From Candidatus Omnitrophota bacterium (GTDB lineage: Bacteria > Omnitrophota > Gorgyraeia > 1-14-0-20-64-10): 64,000 nucleotides of DNA. Below, piece after piece: positions 3,001 through 45,274 of this stretch; the first letter of the stretch is position 1, and the number at the start of each line of letters is the position of its first letter. The position numbers were made by a program, and so were the translations under genes. The stretch covers positions 314,603-378,602 of the forward strand of contig JAHFFE010000001.1 in the NCBI GenBank assembly GCA_023248155.1. Direction: 5' to 3'. The notes under the pieces were generated by a model. That model ran no database searches. It was given only the letters and a program-made list of their open reading frames with translations, and was not told where the DNA came from.

Positions 3001-3105
3001 AAAATCTGGCTGGCCGGTATTTTGGAACATTACGAAATTACCGCGTTAAGCCTTGATCAAGCGGCCCAGATCGTCGAATCACTTGCCACTCTTCAGTCCG
3101 CCTAA
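1..3105 (+). CDS. 5'-truncated GxEE-family protein: glycogen/starch synthase-like glycosyltransferase (GT-B), then AGAEE, then a C-terminal domain ending LQSA
   Basis: Frame is open from base 1. GlgA-like motifs: NTGGMG (cf. KTGGLG), QTNDDHSG (cf. HCHDWH), LTVSGGFY, VPNGFD, ARVEEVKG, MPSKSESFGLAALEAM. GAEE codons at 2653-2664. Confidence 0.8.
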   Translation, partial: PPAGPDQQFERSTVAAELIRVLGLPNGEGYPLFIALMQKMALLTTPQYGNLTPLLGTQTEWGNDIPPSVVTADLSRIFSDLVRFRWDLKPKLYDWLVRLALSKELDSAAIQLAVDILRSAEVGEIVLVGLQSAYSSNTGGMGPYTLELTRGLAKMGINVTVIVPMFQENKTKILAGRYPRDTGRSVTVPFVGGEQAVLRLYEARSEEGVRVIYFENDRYFQKLAKRPNEPEGAGVYGSSGPFQLRVARVLSLGALLAIRELRIHPSVIQTNDDHSGLLAMYLRQGERDDAHPDTRGDDVDINIRFSNDPSLNQTRVVHVIHALTDGYNLEVNVPTAQWQDIVLHDLGRDWHLRDLDSLNHPAWSSGTEKTISPLHAAIVHADEVLTVSGGFYKDSLTQPGRFHGFTSVLQWKAEQGAYHFVPNGFDTIGLQRHYFPELPQTFLEMGVEAGRRWWAWHRLFYNFDGQGIPVVNRGLGLVSLRKRALQEAFNFPQDGPGVDAFLYSTLARVEEVKGHHLLTAPIWSVNHPEEISYYQGDHHGYKEKPFMFEGHKNEPVSDENQKKLTAYARRRGLESLSALEVALILMPNLQVLIAGPADLSANNLNGEIARDLQAIQQRFAADEPSRRHFAFYPRGVYKGRDAAYNLIYTGSTVFGMPSKSESFGLAALEAMAGGVPTLQSNRGGLRDMAVHLQRIQSDFETYHPISWLMHLSHYYDAYYGDRDLWDEFRYWSVAERDFRGQPRGYRNVYRTMWQRVLHGGTIPDAHGEWDVELPVFEMSAAINRSISARKSHSADELKAAGFSVQDANNALVVAIRDSVRPDFLHTVIDRFLPTLARIPDPKLQSDLLNRINTAIDSADIAGNSDAKGRLIWAKTNYWKAVGQAGAEESIAEAPKQTRAVLAEFSPSAISRRQIHIFDPINADLGLLVSAIQKDPVVIIAENETQERAIHQSGFLGMTVNQELYPDLPAAREAALVLVRDNLEFSGFSPFYYTAEQRASWKIWLAGILEHYEITALSLDQAAQIVESLATLQSA

Positions 3106-22637: not shown

Positions 22638-22724
22638 GTCATCCTGAGATAACAACGGCATGTCATCCTGAGAGTGTACTTGCTCAGGATCTAAAGATGC
22701 TGAACAGAAAATTTTCAGCATGAC
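22638..22724. repeat. REP-like GTCATCCTGAG element(s)
   Basis: Two gtcatcctgaga starts, a tgctcaggatc arm and an atgctgaa/ttcagcat hairpin. Related to 4368-4433. Confidence 0.75.
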
Positions 22725-22737
22725 AAAAAATAAATCT

Positions 22738-25700
22738 ATGAGAATAAAAAAATACAATCAAGTTTCCATCGCAACCTTTCTGCTAATCAGCCTGGTCGGG
22801 ACATCCTCCGTTCCGGCCGTCTCTCTTCCTATATATACGTTGCGCCCGCTTGCTTCCGCGCAAAATAAATCCGGTGCCGAAGAACTAACCAATGCCCTTA
22901 AGCGTCAAAATGATTCTAATGCCAATCAACCGCTTACCAACCAGGCCGTTTTAGACAAAGCGCAAGCTGGCCCATTGCTCAGCGAAACCAAAGAGTTGGC
23001 TGACGCCGCTGCGCGTGCCGCACTTGGCATTACTGCTGGCCAGGAGGAGAAGATTGAGCAATTTACTCGCGACAGAATTTTGTTGCGCTTGAACACCGGA
23101 AGGGAAATACCAACAGTTCCATACAAAACCGGGTTTTTGGCCGGTTTAGCCCAGGCCATTGCCGACCCAGGGCTTTCCGGTACCGCTGAGAGTTATTTAG
23201 TTCAGGAACTTCCACCAGGCCTTCGCGATGTGGTTCAGACAACGGCTGATCTAATTGGCAGAAATCGATTTACAAAGATGGACATGAAAGTGGCTCAAAC
23301 CGACACAGGGTCTCCGTTGACTGGTATTGCCGGCGAGACGATCATGGAAATTCTTTACAATGCGTTTTCACGGGGTTTTGGGGTAGGCCTCCCTCTGAGT
23401 GATAAAGGATATACGGCAATAGTCGTCAGCGGTACTCCCGGTTCTGATCTTTCGGTAGTATCCATTCCTGAGATTGGTCCCGATTTTCAAGACAGCCAGT
23501 TTGCCCGTTCATTAGCCAATCATGTTGTTGATCAACAGCCTACCGTTTTGGGAGTTGACCGGAGAGCAAAATACACTCTTTATGAAATAGGAACCGGCAA
23601 CACGGACTATGCGCTTCCAAAATATCTAGCGGGTGAGCAAGGTAGGAGAGGCTCATACCTTTTGCTTCAAATCGATCTGCCCATAAGTTTCGCCGGCGCG
23701 GAAGAGCGTGGGTGGTTTTCTCGCAATAAAGGTTTTTTTGGCATGGTTGCTTTGTCAGTGGCAGTCCTTGGATTTGCTGCTTACCAAATTGCCGGAGACC
23801 AGATTGCGGAACAATATTATCTTTATCGCCATCCTCCTACAGTAAAACAAGCGGCTGTTATGCCGTCCGGGTTGCATGTTCAGCTGCCTCCTGAAATGGC
23901 GGGTAAATATGCGGTGGCTTATCTGGAAACCGACCGTTTTTATCCGCAGGTCATAACACAGGTATCTGCTGACGGGACCGCTGCGTTTCATGTGGAAGTC
24001 CGGCCCCCTAACCGGCCCGGATGGATTGCCGCTCGCGGACGAGTGGTTGCGGTGGTTAATTCCAAGCAAGCGGCGAATGTAGCTTTCAGGGAAATAAAAG
24101 ACCCGTCTGCTTTGAATCGATTAAATCCGGCCGCTGTTTTAACAATTGATTCCGACGGGAAGGTGACTTCTGATAAGGATCCGTTGGGTAATCAAAACGC
24201 CGGGCAGGAAGAATCTGTTGCAACGGCCATTGATCAGCTTGTTTCGAACAGTTTTGGAGCAACCAATGTAATAACTACAGAAATGCTTTTCAATAATTCA
24301 AACGGAATGGTGACTTTCCAGAATTCAAGTTATTACGGGGATCAGACCTATGAATTAACGCTCCGTCCGTGGGTGAGTCTTTTAAGTGATCATCCAGAAG
24401 AGAACGTTGATTTCAGAGTTCGTGTCAGTCTGCAGAGAAAAGATTTCGCAGTTTTATCAGCTGCGGAACGAAAAGCCATGGCCAGCTACGAATTCAGAGT
24501 CAAAGGGTTTCCTTCTGCGGAGTTTCAATCCGGGTGGACAGCGCTTTCGCCTAATCCGCAACCCAAGAACTACTATGATCCTGGCGCGGGTCCTAACACC
24601 CCTCCAGGGTTTGTCATTCCTGCGGGTGCTGATATGGAAACGTGGATACCCATTCCGATAGTCTCGGACGCTTTCAGAGGAGAAAAGCTTGCCGAGTTGC
24701 AGCGACGCGACCCGGCTCAGAGAAGCATAACCATCCAGGTTAGGAAAGCCGGACAGGAAGAGACGGTTGTCGTTGGGCGGATACTTACTTTGCAGGCCGC
24801 GATGGAAAAACTGCGTACATTGTTAGCCGGTTCCAACCATAAACAAATCGTTTTTAATCCAGAGCAAAACGAAAGCTTAATAGAACGTACTGAAACCGCA
24901 TCAGTAAAAGATGTTTCGGATTTAACCGGGCCTGTTCGCCTCATTGGTCAATACTCGCCCAACTTTGATAATGGTCAGGGGGAAGGGCTGGTCGATATCC
25001 GTACCCGAAACGGCATCATTTATGTGAATCCTTTTCCATACAAAGCGGAAGAACTTTCTCTGAAAGTTACGCAGCTGTTTCGAAGAGGCGATATTTTGGT
25101 GGACCAAACTACGGGTGTCCGTCATTTTGAAGTTGCTGACAATCAAGGAAACGCTGTTGATGCTGTTCCTCTGGTTTCAATTATCAACGGATACACAGCT
25201 GATTCTAAGGTGACGCGTGTTCCTGCCGCGGATCTTCGGCTTCGCTACCGCGTGATTCGTGCCGTTGCCGCCGGGGCGGAAGAAAATGTTGAGGAATTGG
25301 CCGCTCGGTTAGGGGATGAGCCAATTAAGGTCGTGGAAACACTTCCTTCCTCTGCTCTTTTGACTGCCGATGCGAAAGCAGATGTGGTCCGTTACTTGCG
25401 GGGAGAGATTGAAGAGGCTGAGCTTCTTGGCATCTTGGACCGCTTAGGAATAGTGGAGATTCAGTCAGGCGGCAATTTCATGAACCAGGCGGAGCTCATT
25501 CGCGCCGCGGCGAAAGAGCGGGCCTTGGTGGAGAGAGCGATTGCGGAAGACCGTTTGGGAGAGTTTATTCCTATTGCCGATGGGAAATCCGCGGCTGTGG
25601 TGGAAGTGGATGTCGTCTCGAGTCTGCCAAAGGTTTATCTGCAGAATGGTTTGTCTTCGCCGGTTGCCGCGCCCGATGACATAGCGATCATTCCTTTAAG

Positions 25701-26025
25701 CGGCGATATTGCGGAAGTTTCTGATCAGTGGTTGAATGGGGCAGGTTCTGAGTCCGATCTGGTTATTTTGAATAACCAGCTGGATGGCGTGGCCGCTATG
25801 CCAGGTTCCTGGCTTCCGGCGGTAGCTCCAAGGCCAGCCGCGGTCCGCATGAGCCCGGTAACCTCGACGGAGCTTTTTTCAGGCGACGCCATTCAGGTGG
25901 GCCGCAACTTGCGCGCTATGGCGGCGCTCTCTCTGGCAGTGCACGGAGTACCGGATATGGATATAAACGGAATTACCTTTGTTGATCTGGCCGGAAAAAC
26001 CTATGCGGTTATTACCTCTGCCTAA
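22738..26025 (+). CDS. GxEE-family modular exported protein 1 (6 motifs)
   Basis: Signal peptide, YTLRP, motifs near 22873, 23038, 23695, 24202, 24751, 25273. C-terminal VYLQNGL..DLVILNN..WLP..TYAVITSA. Confidence 0.85.
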   Translation: MRIKKYNQVSIATFLLISLVGTSSVPAVSLPIYTLRPLASAQNKSGAEELTNALKRQNDSNANQPLTNQAVLDKAQAGPLLSETKELADAAARAALGITAGQEEKIEQFTRDRILLRLNTGREIPTVPYKTGFLAGLAQAIADPGLSGTAESYLVQELPPGLRDVVQTTADLIGRNRFTKMDMKVAQTDTGSPLTGIAGETIMEILYNAFSRGFGVGLPLSDKGYTAIVVSGTPGSDLSVVSIPEIGPDFQDSQFARSLANHVVDQQPTVLGVDRRAKYTLYEIGTGNTDYALPKYLAGEQGRRGSYLLLQIDLPISFAGAEERGWFSRNKGFFGMVALSVAVLGFAAYQIAGDQIAEQYYLYRHPPTVKQAAVMPSGLHVQLPPEMAGKYAVAYLETDRFYPQVITQVSADGTAAFHVEVRPPNRPGWIAARGRVVAVVNSKQAANVAFREIKDPSALNRLNPAAVLTIDSDGKVTSDKDPLGNQNAGQEESVATAIDQLVSNSFGATNVITTEMLFNNSNGMVTFQNSSYYGDQTYELTLRPWVSLLSDHPEENVDFRVRVSLQRKDFAVLSAAERKAMASYEFRVKGFPSAEFQSGWTALSPNPQPKNYYDPGAGPNTPPGFVIPAGADMETWIPIPIVSDAFRGEKLAELQRRDPAQRSITIQVRKAGQEETVVVGRILTLQAAMEKLRTLLAGSNHKQIVFNPEQNESLIERTETASVKDVSDLTGPVRLIGQYSPNFDNGQGEGLVDIRTRNGIIYVNPFPYKAEELSLKVTQLFRRGDILVDQTTGVRHFEVADNQGNAVDAVPLVSIINGYTADSKVTRVPAADLRLRYRVIRAVAAGAEENVEELAARLGDEPIKVVETLPSSALLTADAKADVVRYLRGEIEEAELLGILDRLGIVEIQSGGNFMNQAELIRAAAKERALVERAIAEDRLGEFIPIADGKSAAVVEVDVVSSLPKVYLQNGLSSPVAAPDDIAIIPLSGDIAEVSDQWLNGAGSESDLVILNNQLDGVAAMPGSWLPAVAPRPAAVRMSPVTSTELFSGDAIQVGRNLRAMAALSLAVHGVPDMDINGITFVDLAGKTYAVITSA

Positions 26026-26033
26026 AATCAATC

Positions 26034-26096
26034 GTTAGTAGTAGAAAACTTCGCCGTTATTTTTATTGACAAAAATAACAACCCCAGCGCTATAAT
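26034..26096 (+). promoter_or_regulatory. Sigma70-like promoter with conserved upstream box
   Basis: gttagtagtagaaa (26034), TTGACA (26066), TATAAT (26091). The 19-bp spacer is long. Confidence 0.65.
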
Positions 26097-26215
26097 GGCA
26101 AATAACCTTGAATTTCGCAGCGGTCTTTTTTTGTCCGTCATTTTTTACAGATTTAGATAAGATCTGAGACAGCTTTTATGAACCCATATAAAAACTCGGC
26201 CAGATAAAGGAAAAA

Positions 26216-29200
26216 GTGATGCGGACAAATTTAAACCAGTTCCTGGCCGCCCTGCTTCTCGTTGGTCTCTCTTTCGCGAATATTTCTCCCGTCCCTCAGC
26301 TGTTCATGGTGAGTTTATCGAACCATACTCTGCGTGCCGTTGGTTTAGAGGAAGGCACCCAAAAGAATTCTTTATCTGACGCTTTAAAAAATAATGCCTC
26401 CGGATTAGAGGAAGCGGTTGTTTTGGACGCGTCGGTTCCTTATCAATATCCCTGGCGGACTGCCGAATTCGACGAGCTTTGGCCAAATGCCGATGATCGT
26501 GATCCCAAGCTGGAACGCTTTCAAAGATTGTTCAACCAGGATTTGGACGGCCATCCGGAAGGGGAGATTCAGCTCACATCGCCCAACGGAAACCCCGATG
26601 AGTTGGCCCGCTGGATTGCTGAAAACAATATGACTCCGCAGCGGGTTGCCGAAAGCATTGAATGGATCCATAAGATGCACCCCTACGATAAGGAACGGTT
26701 TATCTCTCTTCAGCAGTTGCCCAGCATTCAGGCGTTTCTTGCCGCTCATCCGGAAGCCCGTTTCAATTTAATCGGCGTCCGCGAAGATGAGAGCAAGGTC
26801 GGTTCCTTCAAAATCGGCCAGTATATGGATGAATATCTGCAGAAGATCCTCAAAGCCGGCCATCGAGGAGATGTAAATTTCCCGGGCGCCGTGATGTACT
26901 CCTCGGGAAACGCCATTCAGGGAGATGTCGAGACATTGGCCTGGCTCAAAGAGCAGGGGTTGGTTCCGCAAGATTTCAAGATCACAATGGTGGCAATGGC
27001 TTACCTGAAACCCAAAAAGCGGAAAATGATCGAGGATTTTAAAAAGCGGGGATTGGTTGACCGAATTGTTACCCCCGAAGAAATTGCCGCCGAGTATCTT
27101 GCCGATTCAGAGGGGGGCAGCGTACCGGTTCAGCATCAGGACTTGGCGGTTGATCCCGTGGCGTTGGATGACATCAATCAGGTTTTGAAACTTTTGGATT
27201 GGTGGTCGGAGAAACAGGGCCGGGCCCATATTTACGCTTCCAACAGCTTAAGCGCCGTCGTGGGCGGGGCCAGAATCTACTACGATATTAATCGGGCATT
27301 TACGCAGGATCGTGAATACCTGCAAGCGTTGTTGGGGGATGCCGCCGAAACTTTGCCGGCTCAGCCCGATGGTATTGTCATGCCTGCCGCGGGCGGCGGA
27401 CCGTTCGGGGGAATACCGTTTTGGGCGCGCCAGCTTGGGCATGCCACCAAAACCATCGGACCGATCCCCACCATCCGGACCGGCAGCATCGCGGAAGGTC
27501 TGGGCATTCAGATGATTCAGGAACTCGCGCGCAATCTGGCCCGTTTATTGGGAGTAAATCAGATGCAGCTTACCGAGGTATCTGAGCGGGCTATTCTAAA
27601 AGCGTTTGTGGAACTGCATGACGCCGGAATTGAAGTGGAGCCCAGCTCTGCCATCGCCTACGCGCAGGTGCTGTACCTGATGGAAAACAAACCTGAATTT
27701 TTCTCTCAATTTTTGGCTGAGAACGGCCGGCCGATGACGCTGGTGGCCATATTAACCGGGCGCAATTTTGAACCATCGGATGCCGCCTGGGCTTGGGCGA
27801 AGGTTCAAGAGCTTCGCCTGAAGGAGCCCCATGCCCTCAGAGCCGATCCAACCCAAAGGCAGGCGGCCGTTCCTCCGGCGAATGGGCTGCAGCAGGTTGT
27901 CGTTTTGAGTTCAGGCACCGAGCAGGCAATGGGCAGAGCGCTGCGCCAGGCGGTAATCGATTGGCGCGCGTCCCAGCCGGCAAATCTGAAACCAACCGTA
28001 ACGGCTGTCTACAATCCTCCCAAAGATCTGGATTGGCTTAAAAAGATAAAACCGGATGTCATTCTTGTGGCGGCTACTGCCGAAGAAGCCCAGCAGGATG
28101 GTTTACTAAGGAATGCCATCACAGTTCTTGGCGATGCCGGCGTTCTCATTCGTTATGTTCCTTTCCCCAGCAAGGTAGCAAGATCTTTGAATCCGCTGGC
28201 AAAATCTCTGCCAGGGAAGCTTCTAAAAATCGGCGAGCTGTTTCAGGGAGGGGATATTTTGGTGGATTCGACAACCTCCAAGCCCCGTTTTCGGGTAGTT
28301 GCCGACCAAGCAAACACCATCAGCGCTGTTTCTCTCCAACCAATTGATGAGCAGGGCAATTCCGCGGGGCCGGAAACCGCTGTCCCCGTCGCGGATCTAC
28401 GCCTGCGTTTTCAAGTGGTTCGCGCCGGCTTAGAGGAGCAATTGCTCACCGTTACGGTTCCTCCAAGCCAGCCGGTTTGGCTCACGGCGGCAGATGGAAT
28501 CCAATTGCTGGAACGGTTGCTGCAAGAAGGGGAGTCCCGCTCGATTTACTCTGTTAAGCACGGGGCTGATTTTCTTGTGCCTCGTTACAGAGCGGTAGTT
28601 TCAAAAGAGGGAGGTGTCATTAAAGTCCGAACAGTCGGTAAATTTTCGATGTCACTTGAGTTCGTCATGACGCGCGTCGAGGGTTATTTTATCGTGAAGC
28701 CGGATGGAAACATCTTCGTTATTGATGCCGAAGATGGAAACCAGAGAGCGAATATTTATTTGCGCAAGAATTTTTCGACTATTTCCGTTGATTCTCTCGC
28801 GCCTGCCGCTGTCGAGGGCTGGGTTCAGCGACCTTCCGCGGAAGAAGCGGCGGCCTATATCCGGGAGCTTGTTCCACAAGGCGTTTCTGCTGTTCAAATG
28901 GGAGACGCTGAACATTCTCCGGAATCTGACCGTTTGGTTGATGATCTCACTCAGTTTCAGGGGGGAGCTGGCAGCGGCCGGATTTTCTATTTGAGAAGGT
29001 CCAACCAAAATGTAGAGGTGTTGGCGATCACTGCGATGGATTTTGACGCCAGATCCATTGGGGAGTTCCATCAATTGCCGATGGGTGAGTTGTTGAAGAA
29101 GATCGCTCAGCTGGGAGCGAACTGGTTCGTCCAGGTCGGTTTTTCGAATTCGGCAGCGCGGGTATATGCGACAGACACCTCTGGTTTGCAGAGACTTTTG

Positions 29201-31267
29201 CGTGGATATCCCAATACGACGGGTTTCTACGCCCTGTCCCTTCGCGCAAATCAGACTGCTTTCGTGAGCAACAGCTCGAATCCCAATTCTTCCGGATTGG
29301 AGGAAGATTTTCGAGATGCTTTCTCGGATGGGATGGCCGCTCAGCATTATTTGGACCAATTGGCGGGTTTTGCCGATATTGTTTTATTGAATCAAACCCA
29401 AGAGGCTTTGGGTAGAGTCGACGCCCATTCAAGGGATTATCTGGATCCGAAGGGAATTTATCCTTCCACCAGAGAAATTATTCCCAAGTACGCTCAAGCC
29501 AATCCTGTCGAATTAGACAGTGCTCATCGCGAACGGTTGAAAGAATTTCTTTTTTCGGTTTGGGAGAACGAGCGCCGTATGCGGAACGAACCGCAAGGTT
29601 CTGCTCGAACAGGCAGGCCAGTGGTTGATGTGGAGTCAGCCATGCTTCCTGAACTCATAGAGCAGGGACGTGCTGCTCAGCGGCTGGCGTTGTCTGGCGG
29701 GCTGGAAGAGCGGGTGAATCTTTTGGTTATTCGGGATTCTAATGACGCGGCAACCAAACAAGCGCTGCTAGGTATCGTTCCTGGCTGGGCTAAAACAAAA
29801 GCTTCGCAGGAAATCGATGTGGTTTCTTACGGCACCCTGGATAAGGGGCTTGCCGCCTCGCCTAAGAAAGGCCGATGGAGCGGGATCCTGATGTTGCGGC
29901 ATGTTGCGACTGAAGCCGATGTCGATGAGATTGAGCGCCAGATTACCGGCCTTAAGCCCGTTTCGGATTCTGCGGCGATACCGGTTGCGCTGATCGTCTA
30001 CGCGTCGGACCAAAAAGTATACGAAAAACGGTTGCTGGGTTCGCTGCAACTCCTCAAAGGAAGCCAGGGTATCGTCACATTTTTTGTTCATCGTTTATGG
30101 CAAGACAAACCTGCTTCTCAGCCCGCCGTCGCGGATTCACCGGAACCCACAGCGAAACCGGCAGTGCCGCCGGCAGGAGTCTTCACGGGAGTTCTGGATC
30201 AATTGCTGGACTCCGCGGCTAAGTACGCTGTGGCTGTCGGTCTGGAAGAGCGGGGAGCGCTGCTTCCCGATGTTTTCTTTCGGCGTCCAGGGTTCCAGTT
30301 CCTTATGGAAATGGGAAGAGCAAAAATCCTGCCGGCGGATTTCGATGTCCGGGATAAATCTCTTCAGGTTCGAATCGGCCGGATCGTAGGCCGCTGGGGG
30401 TTCAGCCGTTGGCTGGAAGAACTCCCGCTGGCAAAGGTTCTTGAGAATAGCCCCAATGGGCACAATGACCTGGCCGCGGTGGAAGCGTTTATTGCAAGGG
30501 CACAAAATATTCCGCCGGATTATTTTGGGATAGCGGCAGGAACCACCCAGTGGTCGCCCAAGAAGACGCCTTCTTGGCCGGCGGTTCAGCCATTAGTGAT
30601 CGAGGCGGTAGCGGGTGCTCGTCAAAATAAAAATTTCGAATTACAGTACACCCCTGCTGCGGTAAGCGAATCGGATGTGACTGATCAAAGCGACGGTAAA
30701 ACCTACCATCATGTTGAAATAGTTTCGCCTCCGAAAATTCAGCTTCTTCCTGCCGCCGGGCTGGAGGAATGGACCGTTTCCGATCTGTTCTTGCGCGAAG
30801 TGGTTACCACGCACAATTTTTACACGCGATTTGCGCAAGAAGACGGTTCCCAGCTGATTGTGGTGCCGATGGGACAGAATAAAGTTAAGCCGGCGAATCT
30901 TTATTTGCAGGAGGGGCTTGAGAATCCCATTTCGCGCCTGGTTCCAAACCCTGTTCGTCTGGGAAGAGAAAAGGAGGACGTTCGGGGGCTCTTCCGCCAA
31001 AACCCCGCGGGTCCCAACGATGTCATTGTTCTCAACTCCGATATAGTGAGGGGTGATCCGTTGTCCTGGTTTTCAGCGGGCGGCGCGAATACTCAATATA
31101 AGGTGCGTATTTCACCGGCGTTAGCCATGAAATTCAACAATGATCTGGATACCCGATTCATGGAAGTGGTCGCGTTGGCCGCGCGGGTGGGTAATGGAAT
31201 GTTATTGCTGGACTACACGTATCAGGCGGTGGATGACCAGGTGTACTTGATCCTGCGCTCCGCGTAA
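26216..31267 (+). CDS. GxEE-family modular exported protein 2 (7 GLEE motifs) with a PLP threonine-dehydratase-like module
   Basis: Signal peptide, HTLRAVGLEE. GSFK, SSGN, MPAAGGG, SIAEGL, VEPSSA, ILTGRN. Ends VYLILRSA. Confidence 0.88.
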   Translation: MMRTNLNQFLAALLLVGLSFANISPVPQLFMVSLSNHTLRAVGLEEGTQKNSLSDALKNNASGLEEAVVLDASVPYQYPWRTAEFDELWPNADDRDPKLERFQRLFNQDLDGHPEGEIQLTSPNGNPDELARWIAENNMTPQRVAESIEWIHKMHPYDKERFISLQQLPSIQAFLAAHPEARFNLIGVREDESKVGSFKIGQYMDEYLQKILKAGHRGDVNFPGAVMYSSGNAIQGDVETLAWLKEQGLVPQDFKITMVAMAYLKPKKRKMIEDFKKRGLVDRIVTPEEIAAEYLADSEGGSVPVQHQDLAVDPVALDDINQVLKLLDWWSEKQGRAHIYASNSLSAVVGGARIYYDINRAFTQDREYLQALLGDAAETLPAQPDGIVMPAAGGGPFGGIPFWARQLGHATKTIGPIPTIRTGSIAEGLGIQMIQELARNLARLLGVNQMQLTEVSERAILKAFVELHDAGIEVEPSSAIAYAQVLYLMENKPEFFSQFLAENGRPMTLVAILTGRNFEPSDAAWAWAKVQELRLKEPHALRADPTQRQAAVPPANGLQQVVVLSSGTEQAMGRALRQAVIDWRASQPANLKPTVTAVYNPPKDLDWLKKIKPDVILVAATAEEAQQDGLLRNAITVLGDAGVLIRYVPFPSKVARSLNPLAKSLPGKLLKIGELFQGGDILVDSTTSKPRFRVVADQANTISAVSLQPIDEQGNSAGPETAVPVADLRLRFQVVRAGLEEQLLTVTVPPSQPVWLTAADGIQLLERLLQEGESRSIYSVKHGADFLVPRYRAVVSKEGGVIKVRTVGKFSMSLEFVMTRVEGYFIVKPDGNIFVIDAEDGNQRANIYLRKNFSTISVDSLAPAAVEGWVQRPSAEEAAAYIRELVPQGVSAVQMGDAEHSPESDRLVDDLTQFQGGAGSGRIFYLRRSNQNVEVLAITAMDFDARSIGEFHQLPMGELLKKIAQLGANWFVQVGFSNSAARVYATDTSGLQRLLRGYPNTTGFYALSLRANQTAFVSNSSNPNSSGLEEDFRDAFSDGMAAQHYLDQLAGFADIVLLNQTQEALGRVDAHSRDYLDPKGIYPSTREIIPKYAQANPVELDSAHRERLKEFLFSVWENERRMRNEPQGSARTGRPVVDVESAMLPELIEQGRAAQRLALSGGLEERVNLLVIRDSNDAATKQALLGIVPGWAKTKASQEIDVVSYGTLDKGLAASPKKGRWSGILMLRHVATEADVDEIERQITGLKPVSDSAAIPVALIVYASDQKVYEKRLLGSLQLLKGSQGIVTFFVHRLWQDKPASQPAVADSPEPTAKPAVPPAGVFTGVLDQLLDSAAKYAVAVGLEERGALLPDVFFRRPGFQFLMEMGRAKILPADFDVRDKSLQVRIGRIVGRWGFSRWLEELPLAKVLENSPNGHNDLAAVEAFIARAQNIPPDYFGIAAGTTQWSPKKTPSWPAVQPLVIEAVAGARQNKNFELQYTPAAVSESDVTDQSDGKTYHHVEIVSPPKIQLLPAAGLEEWTVSDLFLREVVTTHNFYTRFAQEDGSQLIVVPMGQNKVKPANLYLQEGLENPISRLVPNPVRLGREKEDVRGLFRQNPAGPNDVIVLNSDIVRGDPLSWFSAGGANTQYKVRISPALAMKFNNDLDTRFMEVVALAARVGNGMLLLDYTYQAVDDQVYLILRSA

Positions 31268-31282
31268 AGGCCCATTGAAAAT

Positions 31283-31343
31283 GTTAGTCGTAGAAAGTTT
31301 CATGATTTAAATGTTGACATTTTTGCACTTTCTCAGGTATAAT
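31283..31343 (+). promoter_or_regulatory. Sigma70 promoter with conserved upstream box
   Basis: gttagtcgtagaaa (31283), TTGACA (31314), 18 bp, TATAAT (31338). Confidence 0.75.
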
Positions 31344-31353
31344 TTTCACAATA

Positions 31354-31389
31354 CGCTGGTTTTGTCTTCCAAGCCAGCGGCTCTTTTTT
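31354..31389 (+). terminator. Terminator-like hairpin in the 5' leader
   Basis: cgctggtt...agccagcg stem followed by gctcttttt, between promoter and start codon. Confidence 0.45.
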
Positions 31390-31453
31390 ACCCTGCATTT
31401 TTACTTATTTTGGATAACTTAAACAAAGCAAACATTCGGGAGGAATACAAGTA

Positions 31454-37225: not shown

Positions 37226-37241
37226 CAGAACGGAGAGAAAA

Positions 37242-40200
37242 ATGCGGTTTAATTATCTGCGAACAATTTCGGCAATCGTTCTGACTGCTTTTTCTCTGTC
37301 AGCGGCTACGCCTATGCCTGCGTGGGCTTTGCGCGCCACTGGCGCCGAGGAAAGCGCCACCCAGCCTATTTTGGCTCGCGCGCTTCAATCCGGCAATAAA
37401 GGTAATTTTGTCCGCGGAGTTGATTCCCGCTTAGTTGCCGCTGGTCAGGAAGAGAATGTTCATGTGCTGGGTATTGAGGGCAAGCCGACCAATTCCCGCG
37501 AGGGTCTGACCGCTTATGACAACCAGCCCGATTTGCAAACGGCGGTCCGTGCTTACGTGCAGGCCTCGTCCGTTCTGGTGACGATTACGTCCATTCAGCA
37601 GAGAGATGGAACAACGGATGAGTTTCTTGGAAAACCGTTTGTTTTTGAAACCTATCGTTTTGCGCCAGGAAAAGATCCTCTCGACCCTAAAGATGGCAAT
37701 TGGGGCGGCATGACCTGGCAACTGCGCCGTTTTTCTATTCGATTAAACGGACTTAGTCGGGTGGGCAGCCCTCTTCCGAATATGTCACACACGCTGAATC
37801 GGTTTCGCTTAATTGAAACATCGCCGGGACAACTTGTCATCGAACCAGTTTTTGACGCGGCGCTTGCGCCGCGATTGAAGACCCTTTTGCCCGATGTGGC
37901 TTTAGAGACGATTCAGGGTTGGTTATCAAAGGGCCAATACGCGCAGATCCTTTCTTTAGCTGAGAGTGGTGCTAACGAGAGAACAGATACTCGGAATCTG
38001 ACGCAAATCCGGAATATGCTCAATGCCATGCTGGATGTTTCTTCCGCCGCTGGGGCCGAAGAGAGATTTGAGGTTTCTGTCCGCAGTACGAGTGATGGCA
38101 CTGAAAACTTCGATCGAATCGAGCTTATGTCCAGGAGCGAAGAAACAGATCGGTTAGCGAATGCACTGGGCTTGATTAAAGGGCGTTCCTTGCTTTTGAT
38201 ACGCCAAAAGGCGCCGACTACCGCCACGGAGGCATTTCCCTTTTTTGCCGTGTCCGATGGGGCAAAGGTGATTCTTTTGTCCGGGGCTGGATCCGATGGC
38301 GCGCAGCTTTGGCGTTCCTATGCGGAAGAAAAAATAAAACGAAGCATAGTTTTTTCATCTATGCGGTCATTTCGTACTTTAGAAAGCCCCGTTAATGTTC
38401 AAATTAGTTCTCCCCTGAGTATTCCTCAATATGATCTATTGCAGGTAACGATCTCTGCTGGGCAGGAAGAAAAGTGGTCGAATCCGTTTATGGGTCCAAA
38501 CCGCGTCAATTTAATGTCTGGCGATTACGCGGCAAAATGGATTTCGCAAGGCGTCTTGGCTGCGAAAATTGCTTCTGTCGCGGTTCATCCGAAAGAGGGT
38601 TCTCCCGTTACGCTTTCGCTGAATCAAGTCAACACAGCTCGAAAATTGCTTCGCCAATTTAAACGCGACGATTGGGTTAATGTGTCCTGGGCAGAAAACG
38701 GTTCCGCTCGGGGAGAAATTCGTGTTGATGTCCGGCCCGTTGATGTTTTGTCCGATGGGATGCCTGTTCCGCCCGTTGGCGAATTTACCAGCGTAATCGG
38801 TTATCTGACCATTACGACGACCCCTTACACCGCGGCCAGGGCCATAGCAGCATCCGCGGCAGAGATTGCTTCCGTTGAAACTCTAATTTCTTTTACGAGT
38901 GACCCCGGCTATTGGAGCGGTTATGGCCACGCAAGCACCGATTGGAACGCCGTGGCTGAACAGCATGCCAAGGTCTATGTGGCTGCCGGCCTGGCTTCAA
39001 TAAATCCGGCTATTTTATCGGCCAAAGTTCAGTTTCTGGCGAATCTCGAACCGCTATTTCTCGCTGGGCAGGAGGAAACTTATTTCTATTCTCCTGCTGG
39101 GGCTACGCTCAAGTCCAACGATCAGACGCAGCCCGATCTTCCTATCGCTGTTGGGGATGTCTTCCGAATTTATCTGGCTCAGAAGCGAGTCAAACCCGAT
39201 GATCGCAGCGACGAGACTTATCTGCTTCGGCTCATGGAGAACGGGCAGCTTGCTCTAATGGAACGGCCGCCAGCCGGCAGAACATTCAGTGAAATGACCG
39301 AAAACGAAGACCAATTTGTTCAGTTGGCCATCGGCTGGGATCAGGCACATCAGCGGGGTGAGCGGGTGACCATAAATACCCTGTATGGACCCGTGAGCAT
39401 TTCACTGAACGCGGGAAAAACCCAACTTGCCTTCGAGCATGCTTTCCGAGAGGAAAATATAGAGGAACGCATTGGCTCTAAAGTAAATATTTATCCTAGC
39501 TCTCTCTACGACCTCGGCTTCAATCGCCTTATTCCAGCTGTTGGGTTGCCCGCCGTCAGGGATTTTAAAGCCGCTTATCGCCGTTTCTATAAGAATCAGC
39601 AAAACGGAGACGCCGCCGCGCGGTTAGAAGCGGCCCGCGTAGCTTTAGTGGTGCTGGCCAATACGGAAGATCAGACACGGTTTCGTGCGGCCTATGCCTC
39701 TTTTGAAAAGGCTCTTTTGAATGAGCTGCAAACGGCTCCTTACACTCTTGTCAAGGGCGTTCCGGGTTTCGATAAACCGATTTTTGCAATAGATTATGTG
39801 AGTCACACCCAGCGTCAGCTCGTCGATGAACTCACCGCGATTCGATCCCTTTCAAATGCCGCCGGGGCGGAGGAAACTTACCGCAACTACGATTCCAGCG
39901 GTTGGCATGTCACATTACCCGCAGGGCAAGCCGTCGCGCAGCCGGTTACGGTGGCTACTAATCCGGGAGATATTCTGCTTCTGCAGTGGGCGCCCCAAAT
40001 TCCGAATCAGGAAAATAGGCTGTTCGCGCTGGTTCGGGTTTCTGATGATGGAAAAGAAATTTCCGTCTTGGATCAGCTCGATTCGCAATTCAGATTGAGT
40101 AGTTTTTATCGGGCGGGTGTTCAGGGTATGACTGGAGCAGAAGTGCCTGGCGATGTTATCCGGAGCGTGGAGTGGGGACCGGCCGCTTCGGAGGCGAGAA

Positions 40201-42056
40201 TTTCTGAGGCTGGAATTTCTTTTCAGAGCAATCCCAATAATTCGTTGAGTGTTACCCTGTCGTCGAATAATTATTTAGTTGTTTCCCGTCTCCAGCCGGC
40301 CGCCGGCGCTGAGGAGAAACTGATACTTTCCCGTTCCGAACTGCTGGATCGTGTGGAGGCTTTAGCTCAGATACAACATACGGGAGGCGGGTATGCCATC
40401 GGCCGGGTGGGGTATCTTCGTGCTGGAGAGGTAGTGCCGATCGAGGTATCCCGGGCAGGCATAGACCAAGGGGAAATTCCGGGAATTATTCCTGCAATGA
40501 CGAATCGATTAATTGCTCGGATCGAATCGCTGCGAGATGGCCGACACGCTTTGCAAATTCAGAGTTCATCAAATGGCGGCCAATTTGCAGTAACTCCGCA
40601 CGGGCTTCAGGTTCAGAAATTTTGGGAGTTACAGCAGATTCACGCCGGATACCCGTTGGAATATTTATCAGATCCTTCCATATTACAGGGTAACAACAAG
40701 GTTGCCGTCACGCGCAATGGCCGCCCGGTTAATTTTGCCGATTATGAGCGGCTTCAGGATCAATTGGTGGGGGCGCCGGGACAAGCATTGCCAATGACCC
40801 TGCTGATCACCGCCCAAGGGGTTGAATTGGTTCCCGCTTATCTTGTTTCGAGTGGCCAGCCGGCAAAGGTTCAAGGTCTTTTTGAACTTGAGGTGGCCCC
40901 GGAATTTACAGCGCCTCCTTCAGGACAATTTCCCCTTATTAATGAAACCGTTTTTGTAGAGCGTTTAGCAGAGGTTCCGAATAATCCTTTTGATTTGGCG
41001 CTTGGGTTCGCTCCGGAAGCCCCCGTTCGTTTATTCCGCCTGCTGGATTCGCCGTTCTCTGTGGCAACGGATGGCAATCGTGTTGTTTATTTCTCCCCGG
41101 ATGCCGAGCCATTGGCGAGGGCCGTGGCGAAGGCGGGAAATATCTCGACAGTTCTCTCCGCGTCGAAAGATCTTAAATTGCGAATCAGAATTGAAACGCC
41201 TGATCAAACCCAATCGGGTGATAAGTTACTGGTATCGGTTCAAGAAGCTCGTGCCGGTGCGGAGGAAAACTGGAATAATCTGGCGCCGAATGAAAAACAT
41301 CCGGTTTTTGTCGGCCAGGCCGTGCAATGGATTTCCGCGGCGGGTGAGTCAGGGAAAGTGGCCGGCATCCGCGTGGGCAATGACCCAAGCCAGGAAGCCG
41401 TTCTGTTGGCGAATCAATTTTCTAACCCGATTGCGCTGGAGCGTCAGTTTAATTCGGTCGCGATGCAGGGGAGCGTTGGCTTGTTGTGGCGCCCTGCGGC
41501 GGGAACCGCTGTCGGCTCTGGAATGATCGCGCTGGAAATTTCTTCTCCGGAAGCCGGCGCCGAGGAAGGCGTCACGCGCCTTTCTGCGGAGGAATTGGTT
41601 GGCCGGGCAATGCTTTCGGATGAAGAGGGTGTCGTCCAGTTCTCTTCCGGAGACTTGGTTATTCCGATCAGCACTAATTTGCCGACTACCGGAACGCTGT
41701 ATCATCAGCCGGGGCTGGCACTGCCGAATATCGACGGATTGAATCAGGTTGTTATTGCCGGCAGCGCGGTCGATGTTCAGAAAATCTGGGATCAAACGCC
41801 TCCGATACCGGGTGATTTGGTCATGCTCAACAACGATACCGTTGGCGACGGGTACAAAGACTTTCTGCCGACTGTGTTGGTAGAGGGCGCTCTCTTTTTG
41901 CGTGTTAGTGCCGCAGCGTCGGCCAAGCTGACACCGGAACTGCTGGCCGGTATCCTTGCGGTTTCTCAGCAGCTAGTAGGGCAGGTACTGTTGATTAATG
42001 ATCTGGAATATGTCACCGTAGAAAATCAGACCTACGCGGTTCTGCGCTCGGCCTAA
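37242..42056 (+). CDS. GxEE-family modular exported protein 4 (9 motifs, modules unassigned)
   Basis: PAWA-LRATGAEE. Motifs near 37341, 37443, 38052, 38460, 39066, 39864, 40305, 41256, 41556. Ends TYAVLRSA. Confidence 0.88.
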   Translation: MRFNYLRTISAIVLTAFSLSAATPMPAWALRATGAEESATQPILARALQSGNKGNFVRGVDSRLVAAGQEENVHVLGIEGKPTNSREGLTAYDNQPDLQTAVRAYVQASSVLVTITSIQQRDGTTDEFLGKPFVFETYRFAPGKDPLDPKDGNWGGMTWQLRRFSIRLNGLSRVGSPLPNMSHTLNRFRLIETSPGQLVIEPVFDAALAPRLKTLLPDVALETIQGWLSKGQYAQILSLAESGANERTDTRNLTQIRNMLNAMLDVSSAAGAEERFEVSVRSTSDGTENFDRIELMSRSEETDRLANALGLIKGRSLLLIRQKAPTTATEAFPFFAVSDGAKVILLSGAGSDGAQLWRSYAEEKIKRSIVFSSMRSFRTLESPVNVQISSPLSIPQYDLLQVTISAGQEEKWSNPFMGPNRVNLMSGDYAAKWISQGVLAAKIASVAVHPKEGSPVTLSLNQVNTARKLLRQFKRDDWVNVSWAENGSARGEIRVDVRPVDVLSDGMPVPPVGEFTSVIGYLTITTTPYTAARAIAASAAEIASVETLISFTSDPGYWSGYGHASTDWNAVAEQHAKVYVAAGLASINPAILSAKVQFLANLEPLFLAGQEETYFYSPAGATLKSNDQTQPDLPIAVGDVFRIYLAQKRVKPDDRSDETYLLRLMENGQLALMERPPAGRTFSEMTENEDQFVQLAIGWDQAHQRGERVTINTLYGPVSISLNAGKTQLAFEHAFREENIEERIGSKVNIYPSSLYDLGFNRLIPAVGLPAVRDFKAAYRRFYKNQQNGDAAARLEAARVALVVLANTEDQTRFRAAYASFEKALLNELQTAPYTLVKGVPGFDKPIFAIDYVSHTQRQLVDELTAIRSLSNAAGAEETYRNYDSSGWHVTLPAGQAVAQPVTVATNPGDILLLQWAPQIPNQENRLFALVRVSDDGKEISVLDQLDSQFRLSSFYRAGVQGMTGAEVPGDVIRSVEWGPAASEARISEAGISFQSNPNNSLSVTLSSNNYLVVSRLQPAAGAEEKLILSRSELLDRVEALAQIQHTGGGYAIGRVGYLRAGEVVPIEVSRAGIDQGEIPGIIPAMTNRLIARIESLRDGRHALQIQSSSNGGQFAVTPHGLQVQKFWELQQIHAGYPLEYLSDPSILQGNNKVAVTRNGRPVNFADYERLQDQLVGAPGQALPMTLLITAQGVELVPAYLVSSGQPAKVQGLFELEVAPEFTAPPSGQFPLINETVFVERLAEVPNNPFDLALGFAPEAPVRLFRLLDSPFSVATDGNRVVYFSPDAEPLARAVAKAGNISTVLSASKDLKLRIRIETPDQTQSGDKLLVSVQEARAGAEENWNNLAPNEKHPVFVGQAVQWISAAGESGKVAGIRVGNDPSQEAVLLANQFSNPIALERQFNSVAMQGSVGLLWRPAAGTAVGSGMIALEISSPEAGAEEGVTRLSAEELVGRAMLSDEEGVVQFSSGDLVIPISTNLPTTGTLYHQPGLALPNIDGLNQVVIAGSAVDVQKIWDQTPPIPGDLVMLNNDTVGDGYKDFLPTVLVEGALFLRVSAAASAKLTPELLAGILAVSQQLVGQVLLINDLEYVTVENQTYAVLRSA

Positions 42057-42060
42057 AACT

Positions 42061-45000
42061 ATGAAAAAAACAGACTGGTTTAAAATAAGCGGTTTTCTGG
42101 GGCTGGCGCTGCTGCTGGCTGTTCCCGCGCCCGTATACGCTCTGCGCGGGGCGGGTGCCGAAGAAAGCTTGGAAAAAACGGATTTAACGCGGGCACTCTC
42201 CCGAGCGGGCAACCGCGGTTACTTGAAGCGTGCCGCCGGATTGGAGGAAACACCCTGGACAATCATCGGCCGGGGAGAGGGCACGCCGGTGGCGATGGCG
42301 CTGGATGATTCCGGTGACGCGCTGGTTCTGTCCCGGATCGCGGCCGGCGAACTGCGGCTTCAAAGAATAAGCCCGGCTGGAAAAGCAGAACCCATAACGC
42401 CGGTTCCGTCTTTGGCGGTTCCAATGCCGCCGGGTTCCGGCGGAGATCCGGCCAATCCGTCCGCTGCTTCTGTTTTCGCCATTCTTCCGTTCCGCGATCA
42501 GGTTCTTGTTACCGATGGCGGCCAGCAATTTTATCCGATAGAGATTTCATCCTTAGGGCAAACGGTTCCCGACCTCCAATCGGCGGCTAAGCCGGTTCCG
42601 CTGGCTAACGTAAGCCGGATCGATCAAATGATTGTCCGGCCTTCCGACGGAATGCTGATTATCGTGGATAAGCAGGGAGACGATGCCGCTTCAAAATCCA
42701 ATTCCATTGTTCGGTTATTTGATGTAAAGCAAATGCCGCCTGTTGTTAGAGAAGCCGTTGGGGTGGGAGAACCCGTCGTGACTGCACCGGCAGTAGCCAG
42801 AAACCGTCTTTACCTGGCCCAATCATTCCCGTTGAGCCCCGCTGCGGCAGTGCCGGCGGGTACCGGGACGCAGACTCAGCGAGAAATTCGCATCCGCGGG
42901 TTTAACATCTCTAACGGCGGGGATGGGAGCGTCGAAACGCTGAGAATTCAGGGACCCAAAACCTTCGTTCGGTCGGATGTGGCCGGTTTGGCGGCTGGCT
43001 TAGTGGATGGAAAACCATTTTTGTTTTCGCTGGAGAGCCGCCAACGCAAGGGTCCAGGAGTTGAAGCCGCCCAGCCGCTTCGTCTGGCGGTTTATTCTCT
43101 CGAGAATCAGGCGCAGGTTGGTTTCTTTGATCTGCCGGCCAATGTTCGGCAGATTACTTACGATTCAAAGAACAGCCAGGTACTGTTGGCCGCGGGCGGC
43201 GCGCCCGAATCCAATTCTTATCAAATCACCGCGGCGCCCGTCGCACAACTCATCCCGGCCGTTCAGCAACGGCCTGTTTCTGGATCTGGTTTAGAGGAAG
43301 CCCCTCAGCCTCCACCCGCCCAGCGCACGCAAGGGATTCATTCTCGGCTTGCCCGGATCTTCATCGAAGGAGTGCTTGCCCGTTATACGCCTTCAGGCAA
43401 TGAGAATTCTGATTTCACCGTCAAATATTTCGGAGAAACAGAAGATGAATCCTTGCTGTTTAATCCGGAGCTTTTCCTTGGGGTTGTAAGAAAATCCCAG
43501 GTTTCGCACCATGTTTGGGTCAATGTAAATCCAGCCACAAAAATCATCGAGGTTCATCCCGTTCAAATCCGCGAAGAATTGAAAAAACCGGTGATTCTTC
43601 TGGATTCTCAAAATACAGTGAACTTTATTCTCAACGCGGCTCTTCCAGAGCCGGTTCTTGGGGTCGCCTATCGGGAAGCAGGGCATCTTCAGGTTTTATC
43701 GGGGGCCTTGTTGGGCAACGCGAGTTTGCTCCCCCGGATTCTTCAGATGGTTAACATCAGTCAAACTATTCTCTTTTTGAAGGAACCCTTTGAAATTCCT
43801 GCGAATTCAGACGCAGAACAGTCTGCCCAAAAAGGATTCTTGCTGCGGCTGGCTTATGTGCCATCTCAAAGGTCTTTGCGTGCGGTCGCGTGGAGAACCA
43901 TTGATCAGTTTGTGCAGGAGTTTTCCGGTTTTGCAAAGGCAGGCCAGGCATCGGTTCTTTATTATCATACGCCTGCCGGGGTTTATCTTCTGGAAGGACC
44001 GGAGAATCTGCAGAATGCCGACTTTCTTCGTGCCGCGGCCGAACAGGTGGCCAGCGGTTCCTACGTGCTTGCCTCAAAGGAGGGCGCTGACGGAAAAGAA
44101 TTTCATTTGTACGCGCCTGAGTTTGCAGGTTTGGAGGAAACGGCCGTAGCAGAAAACGCATTGCCCTCAATATCCAGCCGTCCGGTTATTTCCTCGCCAT
44201 CCGGATTCTCGACGACAGTAGCTGGGCCTGTTTTTCCCGCTTATTCGGCGGTGATCTCCGCGGCAGGCAATGGTCCTTCCGCGTCAGCGAATTCCGTTTC
44301 TTCTTTGGCGGTTTCCGTGAGCAGTCCTCTGAATGCTCCGGCGGTTATTGAGCCGGTTACCGGCGAGCGGGCACCGGAACCGGTGGTTTTCTCGACGGTG
44401 GAAGAGGTGATTGCTTATTTGAACGCTTTGCCGGATGATCAGCCGGTTATTGTGGGCGGTGTCGAGATTCCTTCGCTAAGAGACACTCTTTTTCCGGTGA
44501 AATTAGACGAACTGGCCCGCAACAATCCGGGCCAGAATTTCTTAATCCGGCCCGCCGGCCCCGGCGCCGTTTTGCGCGTTGACCTGCAGGCGCCGGTCCG
44601 CACGCTCAGCGCGACGGAATTGTTTGGTGATACTACCGCAGTTTCGGTCCGATTTGACCTGGCCGAAGCTTCCGATGCCATGATTGCCGCGCAAATCGCC
44701 CAGGCCAATAAGCTGGGCCAGCCGGTACAGATTTCCCGTTCCGGCGAGTTTGCGGCTGTCTTTGAAAAAACTCCAACACTTTCGCCATCGGTCCTTTACA
44801 TACAAGATGATTTGGATCTGCCGCAAGATATGTCGGAATCCGATGGAACGGTTGATGTTCGCCGGATTCCGGCCGATCCCGAGCTGGCCCAGGAATTCTG
44901 GGAGCTGCAGCAGACCCTCTTACCCGGCTCCGTCGTGATTTTAAACAGCAACCTGCTGGCCAATCAGCGGCTCGATCCGCGCCAGTGGCTGCCCGCGAAT

Positions 45001-45177
45001 CTCGATCCGCAGATTCCGGTTTTAATCATGGGAGAAATGGCCGCGCAAAACTGGAATAAAGATTCGCTCGCTTACCTGGTGACGCTGGCTGCTCATTCCC
45101 GCGGAATTTTGTTTATCCGCCAGATTACTTATCCGACGGTAAACGAACGGGAGTTTGTCGCTATCCGGTTCGTCTAA
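42061..45177 (+). CDS. GxEE-family modular exported protein 5 (4 motifs) with a probable beta-propeller module
   Basis: PVYA-LRGAGAEE. Beta-rich blade-like segments at 42250-43290. C-terminal LYIQDDL..VVILNS..WLP..FVAIRFV. Confidence 0.85.
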   Translation: MKKTDWFKISGFLGLALLLAVPAPVYALRGAGAEESLEKTDLTRALSRAGNRGYLKRAAGLEETPWTIIGRGEGTPVAMALDDSGDALVLSRIAAGELRLQRISPAGKAEPITPVPSLAVPMPPGSGGDPANPSAASVFAILPFRDQVLVTDGGQQFYPIEISSLGQTVPDLQSAAKPVPLANVSRIDQMIVRPSDGMLIIVDKQGDDAASKSNSIVRLFDVKQMPPVVREAVGVGEPVVTAPAVARNRLYLAQSFPLSPAAAVPAGTGTQTQREIRIRGFNISNGGDGSVETLRIQGPKTFVRSDVAGLAAGLVDGKPFLFSLESRQRKGPGVEAAQPLRLAVYSLENQAQVGFFDLPANVRQITYDSKNSQVLLAAGGAPESNSYQITAAPVAQLIPAVQQRPVSGSGLEEAPQPPPAQRTQGIHSRLARIFIEGVLARYTPSGNENSDFTVKYFGETEDESLLFNPELFLGVVRKSQVSHHVWVNVNPATKIIEVHPVQIREELKKPVILLDSQNTVNFILNAALPEPVLGVAYREAGHLQVLSGALLGNASLLPRILQMVNISQTILFLKEPFEIPANSDAEQSAQKGFLLRLAYVPSQRSLRAVAWRTIDQFVQEFSGFAKAGQASVLYYHTPAGVYLLEGPENLQNADFLRAAAEQVASGSYVLASKEGADGKEFHLYAPEFAGLEETAVAENALPSISSRPVISSPSGFSTTVAGPVFPAYSAVISAAGNGPSASANSVSSLAVSVSSPLNAPAVIEPVTGERAPEPVVFSTVEEVIAYLNALPDDQPVIVGGVEIPSLRDTLFPVKLDELARNNPGQNFLIRPAGPGAVLRVDLQAPVRTLSATELFGDTTAVSVRFDLAEASDAMIAAQIAQANKLGQPVQISRSGEFAAVFEKTPTLSPSVLYIQDDLDLPQDMSESDGTVDVRRIPADPELAQEFWELQQTLLPGSVVILNSNLLANQRLDPRQWLPANLDPQIPVLIMGEMAAQNWNKDSLAYLVTLAAHSRGILFIRQITYPTVNEREFVAIRFV

Positions 45178-45274
45178 TCATCCTCGCAGTGGTTAATCAA
45201 AATATAGTCTTTGATATTCTGTATTGATTTTTAATAAGCTCATTGGGTATAGTTCGTATATAGACACAAAAACA

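Follow-up and report, generated by a model that had tools for sequence, protein, structure and literature searches.

A lineage-restricted family of C-terminal domains with sorting-signal anatomy in an array of signal-peptide-bearing proteins from an Omnitrophota genome

Background

Tags of the PEP-CTERM, GlyGly-CTERM and LPXTG types place a motif, a transmembrane helix and a basic tail at the C-terminus of a protein, and the XVIPCD of type IV secretion system (T4SS) effectors, which is read by VirD4, has a glutamine-rich tail and is carried by proteins that lack signal peptides. In the portion of PMC8740702 that deals with it, the XVIPCD is a C-terminal domain of ~120 residues on diverse Xanthomonadales T4SS effectors, read by a receptor and leading to delivery into another bacterium. 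The C-terminal domains (CTDs) of type IX secretion (T9SS) cargo are presented, in the relevant portion of PMC11285876, as Ig-like, seven-strand beta-sandwiches of about 67-108 residues that tolerate C-terminal extension and are recognized by fold more than by sequence. Here we describe a C-terminal domain, the class I tail, which is shared by five consecutive proteins encoded in a 64,000-nucleotide stretch ("the window") of contig JAHFFE010000001.1 of a Candidatus Omnitrophota genome (GCA_023248155.1). The class I tail represents a real, lineage-restricted and undescribed family of C-terminal domains with sorting-signal anatomy.

Like T9SS cargo (Por_Secre_tail, TIGR04183), the proteins that carry the class I tail have a Sec signal and unrelated cargo that is capped by a terminal domain, which is exchangeable and only weakly conserved, an analogy already drawn in the original prediction, which was made from the window sequence. 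The logic of that analogy stands and the fold does not: the class I tail is predicted to be alpha/beta instead of an Ig-like sandwich, it spans 135-200 residues and has a biased last residue, and none of 22 tails matches the T9SS CTD models in Pfam and NCBIfam at E<=1. Unlike XVIPCD effectors, class I carriers have a signal peptide, and their genome (98.5% complete) gave no match to VirD4 (PF02534), which was matched in 5 of 14 control genomes. Unlike the PEP-CTERM, GlyGly-CTERM and LPXTG tags, the tail ends in a predicted hairpin, and no lysine or arginine stands last in the 150 matches considered below; the tail model also has no C-terminal beta-barrel of the autotransporter kind. In its logic the tail works like a T9SS CTD or XVIPCD cargo, and it is a member of neither group.

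The Omnitrophota occur widely and lack cultured members, and they are believed to live on other cells. In the parts of recent studies that concern them (10.1101/2023.11.21.568195; 10.64898/2026.06.07.730766; PMC10066038), the giants of this phylum are long, signal-peptide-bearing proteins with glycolytic, glycogen, GNAT, GGDEF and HEAT modules, and the phylum itself is a group of proposed predators or parasites with loci resembling the type II secretion system (T2SS) and type IV pili. The tail-bearing proteins share with these giants the signal peptide and such enzyme modules on long proteins; unlike the tail-bearing proteins, the giants in those same parts measure about 7-10 kaa (thousand residues) and more and are mostly multi-transmembrane. 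A shared C-terminal domain, leader or junction is not described in the main-text parts of West-Roberts 2023, Nielsen and Lui 2026 and Seymour 2023, and the terms 'T9SS', 'sorting', 'motif' and 'GLEE' each occur 0 times in the available text of Nielsen and Lui (10.64898/2026.06.07.730766). The tail domain was likewise not found in the literature searched, which comprised sources other than subscription journals and bioRxiv supplements.

Results and discussion

A conserved terminal domain in five array proteins

The motifs by which the tails had originally been aligned were all found at their positions, in five consecutive + strand open reading frames (ORFs) designated A to E (Table 1). That the five ends belong together was borne out by leave-one-out profiles: one built from any four tails finds the remaining tail, with E values of 1.4e-8, 5e-9, 4.7e-8, 9.5e-11 and 2.4e-9 in a search of 3816 genome ORFs; the best reversed-sequence decoys in the tail profile searches gave E values of 0.48-1.5. 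The four other window tails are 24-29% identical to that of ORF D. A shared terminal domain is therefore present, and its length had been underestimated at ~120 residues: a core of ~135 residues lies inside a module of ~165-200 residues. The start of this terminal module is the last [AS]G[LAQ]EE junction; in 73 of 114 library proteins that junction lies 160-210 residues before the C-terminus. The sixth gene of the array (ORF F) has the same leader, an LR..GxEE element that accompanies the Sec-type signal peptide, and the class I tail was not found in it.

No column of the class I alignment is invariant, the best being glycine (87%), aspartate (78%) and tryptophan (76%), and no invariant lysine, serine, cysteine or histidine was found. 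With no invariant residue catalysis is unlikely, and the pattern of conservation is structural and not catalytic.

Position at the C-terminus and identity of the last residue

With a cut-off of E<=0.001, a search of a library of 1.84 billion representative sequences yielded 224 tail matches; the best 150 of them were examined. As had been predicted, the matches are C-terminal: the alignment ends at most 20 residues from the C-terminus in 149 of these 150 and at most 5 residues from it in 126, and none of them has a significant internal copy of the tail, the single second match being partial (E 0.007). In the loci of related genomes, all 48 of 48 tail matches lie at most 12 residues from the end of the ORF (one cut by a contig end).

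The last residue is also constrained. Among the best 150 library matches it is alanine in 97, tyrosine in 19, leucine in 12, valine in 11, threonine in 6 and something else in five, with no lysine, arginine or glutamate. For all 43 proteins of the genome that have the leader, including those with other kinds of tail, it is alanine in 32, valine in 6 and serine in 5, as compared with 35 of 154 (23%) other signal-like proteins that end in one of these three residues.

Predicted fold and structural neighbours

AlphaFold models of the ORF D tail have predicted local distance difference test (pLDDT) scores of 91.2 for 140 residues and 90.0 for 168 residues. In them four core strands alternate with helices (4-5 helices), a helix-strand subdomain stands at the N-terminus and a hairpin closes the domain; a hydrophobicity scan found one weak hydrophobic stretch, the amphipathic helix of this tail. 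The tail is thereby predicted to have a receiver-like alpha/beta core with a terminal hairpin. The top neighbours in VIA-align are receiver domains (Z 6.0 and 7.2, root-mean-square deviation 2.8 Å, 87-95 residues, core only), which fall below 8, the tool's threshold for a likeness that goes beyond a common arrangement. The expectation that no catalytic fold would be matched with confidence held, the best match being that to receiver domains with Z 7.2, a deviation of 2.8 Å and 95 residues aligned. Foldseek gave no tail match at E<=0.001 in the PDB and viral models, Pfam and NCBIfam gave scattered single matches only to 22 tails (best E 0.004), a PDB sequence search with the tail reached E 0.15 at best, and the ESM Atlas returned a top score of 0.79 and no usable named match. 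Blank structure and profile searches of this kind are no proof of a new fold.

Might the tail function as a receiver in signalling, or be a small enzyme, and stand last by chance? Its best structural neighbours (Z 6.0-7.2) are receiver domains, its DxxLL strand resembles receiver beta-3, and its core of parallel strands and helices superposes on receivers and pseudo-receivers. However, the phospho-acceptor and the lysine of receivers are not conserved, and the N-terminal subdomain and terminal hairpin lie outside the aligned range. The column after the DxxLL strand, where the motif would place the phospho-acceptor, holds asparagine in 39% of tails, proline in 23% and aspartate in 19%, with asparagine in all five window tails, and the tail also lacks any invariant lysine, serine, cysteine or histidine. 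Profile comparison by hidden Markov model (HMM-HMM) with 10 receivers of the same genome gave probabilities of 0.5-0.6%, and the sequence thus lends no support to descent from receivers. A working receiver or enzyme is, in our estimation, highly improbable, and the receiver likeness may be only a common arrangement.

Leader, junctions and the shuffling of modules

The pairing of the tail with a signal peptide, also part of the original prediction, is upheld in relatives: among 38 of their ORFs that are uncut at the start there is no intact leaderless carrier. A leader profile matches 32 of the 38 at E<0.01; 14 of these 32 were in its training set, and 18 of the remaining 24 ORFs match. One further ORF has a visibly divergent leader and five are broken genes, of which two lie behind what looks, by its motif, like an ISL3 transposase end, and two have in-frame stops and an upstream leader, the fifth being a remnant that lies behind a tRNA-like stretch. 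Broken class I genes were seen in relatives at L063, L097, L048, L094, L101 and L108 (a frameshifted tail being among the defects), which suggests fast repertoire turnover or assembly errors. Among the library proteins of at least 300 residues, 75 of 109 match the leader, as compared with 0 of 109 reversed sequences.

Between leader and tail, modules have been reshuffled at the GxEE junctions while the tail stays last. Protein P0054 has two ORF B modules in swapped order, P0051 is an ORF D module joined to a C-type tail, and the tail of ORF A caps three library proteins of different cargo, whose tails are ~54% identical to it and whose cargo has no BLAST match to that of ORF A; BLAST also finds cargo that is common to different tail classes. 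A DNA-level recombination site at the junction was considered and rejected, as different codons are used there and the preference for GCC-GG and CAG-GA equals the codon-pair bias of the genome. Of 6 twin-arginine-like signals with a hydrophobic stretch, 5 (two of which look closely related) lie at most 35 residues behind a junction, where 8% would be expected; these internal signals may be functional or vestigial. In P0039, P0047, P0096, P0101 and P0144 a twin-arginine-like signal stands directly behind the Sec leader and junction, making two export signals in series, and in ORF A a basic stretch and hydrophobic segment directly after an AGAEE junction (residues ~325-360) resembles an internal signal or anchor.

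Reshuffling bears on a reading of the tail as a folding cap or intramolecular chaperone, which would nucleate folding or hold a long precursor in solution while it is exported, no external receptor being involved. A tail that is terminal, single-copy, devoid of a catalytic residue and well folded in prediction would suit such a role; but the cargo consists of unrelated folds that are freely reshuffled, for which a specific template is implausible, and the bias of the terminal residue would be left unexplained. We consider a folding cap improbable.

Tail classes and their range

The genome encodes 43 proteins with the leader and junctions, amounting to 79,372 residues and found in arrays or singly among housekeeping genes (a HemB false positive of the motif filter is excluded from this count). 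Nine of them have class I tails, 11 have class II and 12 have class III; ~11 are unassigned, several with a similar end hairpin, and the tail of ORF F is a possible fourth class as judged from its sequence. The class II and III profiles were trained on those same genome tails; their new matches in relatives are all terminal, 18 of 18 for class II and 22 of 22 for class III. The proposal of an export or sorting tag thus survives in part: the anatomy of a sorting signal is there, and the idea of a single tag for the system gives way to at least three tail classes that share one leader. Common ancestry of the classes was considered and not upheld, the resemblance of II to III being weak (E 0.001, probability 16-21%) and that of I to either being absent.

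The class I tail occurs in 18 of 22 genomes of one Omnitrophota order, including all 8 of those that are at least 90% complete, and in 7 of 400 genomes of the phylum, all of the same family (at most 10 candidates were scored per genome). Four of ten library matches that were looked up are named Omnitrophota by source, and the CTP synthase encoded in the window stands closest to two Omnitrophota records (69% and 67%) among the 80 loci obtained for it. Class II is present in 11 of 12 and class III in 12 of 12 genomes of the family, and both in 0 of 238 other genomes of the class; the leader is matched 12-26 times in each of 9 of 9 family genomes, whereas 5 of 191 others show no more than 1-3 weak matches. 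The leader and the tail classes occur together, almost only within this family or order, and within the sequences searched the class I tail is found in one Omnitrophota order only. A small, 400-kb sample of two other families (G028, G040) contained no comparable alanine-ending exported giants.

Other large or exported proteins were noted in passing. Contig C9 of the genome is one open frame of 45,037 residues. Separate paralogous exported proteins of ~500-720 residues, encoded at G000 C13:11847 and C20:245247-275988, have A[ED]TxE[IL]VTYYP after the signal peptide and do not end in alanine.

Cargo

Pfam matches were obtained in 17 of 52 scanned carriers and in 5 of 9 more, and the cargo so identified is mostly of the cytoplasmic type: formate-tetrahydrofolate ligase, glucanotransferase, glycogen synthase, transketolase, transaldolase, fructose-bisphosphatase, malate synthase and HAD, along with GGDEF, S-adenosylmethionine (SAM) methyltransferase, GNAT, HATPase and HTH domains. 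WD40, HEAT and one S8 peptidase complete the list. In the window, the PALP, KDPG-aldolase and transaldolase-like cargo of ORFs B and C retains the lysine motifs GSFK and LKFFP, whose lysines we take to be catalytic. Cysteine has been lost from the cargo of the family: there are 0 in 3259 aligned residues of enzyme-derived cargo versus 41 in 3126 for the genome's own homologues, 0.27 per 1000 residues in the leader family versus 4.8 in other signal-like proteins, and none at all in the six array proteins of the window.

Cargo of this kind has to be set against a reading in which the tail serves in assembly or anchoring, docking the exported protein on a surface or periplasmic scaffold or causing it to oligomerise (dockerin-like, or as a receiver-type dimer), with a modular enzyme coat as the result and the tail classes as different docking specificities. 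Domains that serve in docking often come in several copies and can also lie away from the terminus, whereas the class I tail is never internal and the last residue is constrained across unrelated classes; cofactor-dependent and DNA-binding cargo would, moreover, be hard to use on a cell surface. On the other hand, the receiver-like core, the purely structural conservation, the single tail copy per protein and the several classes per genome would all suit docking. The same is true of P0102, which at 245 residues has little beyond leader and tail, and of a giant-protein fragment of >9700 residues that also ends in a class III tail; extracellular sugar pre-processing has been raised for similar enzyme domains in a part of West-Roberts et al. 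(10.1101/2023.11.21.568195). We hold docking to be doubtful, if deserving of serious attention. The giant-protein fragment (G000:C25:2-29224) has no Pfam match, three cysteines, and three junctions ahead of its tail.

Candidate machinery in the genome

Of the four secretins found in the genome, three belong to T2SS/type-IV-pilus loci and the fourth is truncated at a contig end; these secretin-bearing loci are the sole candidate machines seen. One Omp85 protein was found. The export gate of type III secretion and flagella (FlhA-type) was not found in the genome and was matched in controls; searches with the PorP/SprF and TIGR04183 profiles and with ShlB (TpsB, the partner in two-partner secretion) gave no match in the genome, the controls being equally silent.

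Two proteins could read a free non-polar C-terminus. One is the single S41 protease of the genome, whose family was matched in 10 of 14 control genomes. The other (L310, G000:C25:64245-65108), a candidate reader of free C-termini, is exported and combines a small beta domain with TPR and two PDZ domains, but has no protease domain. It is encoded ~6 kb behind another array, usually with a conserved small membrane-protein gene after its own, and was matched in 49 of 121 genomes of the class. Their presence would fit a processing or quality-control tag, in which a PDZ protein (a tail-specific protease or an adaptor) binds the free non-polar C-terminus, merely presented by the folded domain, and trims, activates or turns over the precursor. 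A terminal alanine, valine or serine would fit the small hydrophobic C-terminal pocket of Prc, as that pocket is presented in part of PMC5686067. Both candidate proteins are, however, far more widespread than the tail, and the last strand of the model is engaged in hairpin pairing as far as the final 1-2 residues. A tag of this type strikes us as quite unlikely.

A proposed role in export

The reading that we prefer, tentatively and at somewhat less than an even chance, is that the tail, predicted to be an independently folding unit, is a cargo-recognition domain for an export step after Sec. The signal peptide would carry the chain to the periplasm, where a lineage-specific receptor would bind the tail domain together with the free carboxyl end, and the chain would then be passed through an outer-envelope machine, probably unfolded and tail first. 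More speculatively, the destination would be the cytoplasm of a host cell, perhaps with the modules cleaved at the GxEE junctions; substrates would be at hand there for modules that depend on ATP, SAM, folate and sugar phosphates. Delivery into a host cytoplasm would best explain the cargo, yet it seems unlikely to us. We give equally little credence to a full, undescribed two-step system of host-dependent Omnitrophota, i.e., Sec followed by tail-first, unfolded transfer of poly-enzymes into another cell, with interchangeable alanine-ending tails, release at GxEE and re-export of some products by the twin-arginine pathway of the host.

Several observations weigh against export by a dedicated receptor. 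No receptor or channel was identified; secretin machines are common far outside the order and do not explain the narrow range of the tail, and the T2SS normally exports folded cargo, a poor fit with the threading that loss of cysteine would imply. Class I has no detectable kinship to class II or III (HMM-HMM probability 0.5-1.6%), which leaves a single receptor to read either different folds or the last residue alone. The cargo picture rests on a minority of carriers, 35 of the 52 scanned having no Pfam match, and 34 of 109 library proteins of at least 300 residues have no leader match, many of these, for which there is no genomic context, resembling fragments or mis-called starts. GxEE also occurs inside 49 of 150 tails, which weakens the case for cleavage at junctions, and the internal twin-arginine-like signals may be vestiges of captured genes. 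There are also exceptions to a strictly terminal tail: P0060 and P0072 have short extensions beyond the terminal hairpin, and one gene of a relative (L108) ends in a replaced tail. That P0060 and P0072 represent a conserved ancestral gene was considered and rejected, as only their tails match elsewhere.

Organization of the window array

The features of the array are listed in Table 1. Just upstream of it, at 21896-22459, is an ORF of 187 residues with no Pfam or NCBIfam match. The window DNA is supported by assembled contigs from 4 groundwater runs of one study, with no substitutions listed and one run being a possible source; no RNA dataset is among the listed runs that carry window DNA.

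Table 1. Genes, modules and tails of the array, in window coordinates
Feature	Position	Strand	Description
ORF A	22720..26025	+	1101 aa; signal peptide and leader, 6 GxEE junctions, class I tail; 0 Cys; no Pfam match in cargo
ORF A class I terminal module	25495..26022	+	aa 926-1101; core from ~25618; ends ..VITSA
ORF B	26216..31267	+	1683 aa; leader, junctions, PALP (pyridoxal-phosphate enzyme) module aa 377-485, class I tail; 0 Cys
ORF B class I terminal module	30755..31264	+	aa 1514-1683, from last AGLEE junction; core from ~30851; ends ..ILRSA
ORF C	31454..37225	+	1923 aa; leader, KDPG-aldolase module aa 364-510, transaldolase-like module aa 1182-1457, class I tail; 0 Cys
ORF C class I tail core	36809..37222	+	aa 1786-1923; ends ..LSVQA
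ORF D	37242..42056	+	1604 aa; leader, 8 junctions, class I tail; 0 Cys; no Pfam match in cargo
ORF D class I terminal module	41553..42053	+	aa 1438-1604, from last AGAEE junction; core from ~41649; folded sequence; ends ..VLRSA
ORF E	42061..45177	+	1038 aa; leader, 4 junctions, class I tail; 0 Cys; no Pfam match in cargo
ORF E class I tail core	44746..45174	+	aa 896-1038; ends ..AIRFV
ORF F	45224..47677	+	817 aa; leader and junctions as in A-E; last residue Ala; tail outside all three class profiles
Shared N-terminus, example in ORF C	31454..31669	+	hydrophobic signal peptide, AxA-LR, then GxEE
Shared N-terminus, equivalents	22720-22887, 26219-26416, 37242-37460, 42061-42252, 45275-45439	+	
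Class II (helix-ending) tail	2668..3102	+	2436-aa protein of same leader family, 3' part at window start; ends ..LQSA

Significance

The class I tail is small, soluble and well predicted and has a constrained last residue, which makes it a practical handle that can be made, crystallised and used as bait for a receptor, and its profile lists the cargo repertoire for any genome of the order. In this 1.9-Mb genome some ~79,000 residues in 43 proteins carry the architecture of leader, junctions and tail, and the family bears on the question of why the Omnitrophota put cytoplasm-type enzymes behind signal peptides.

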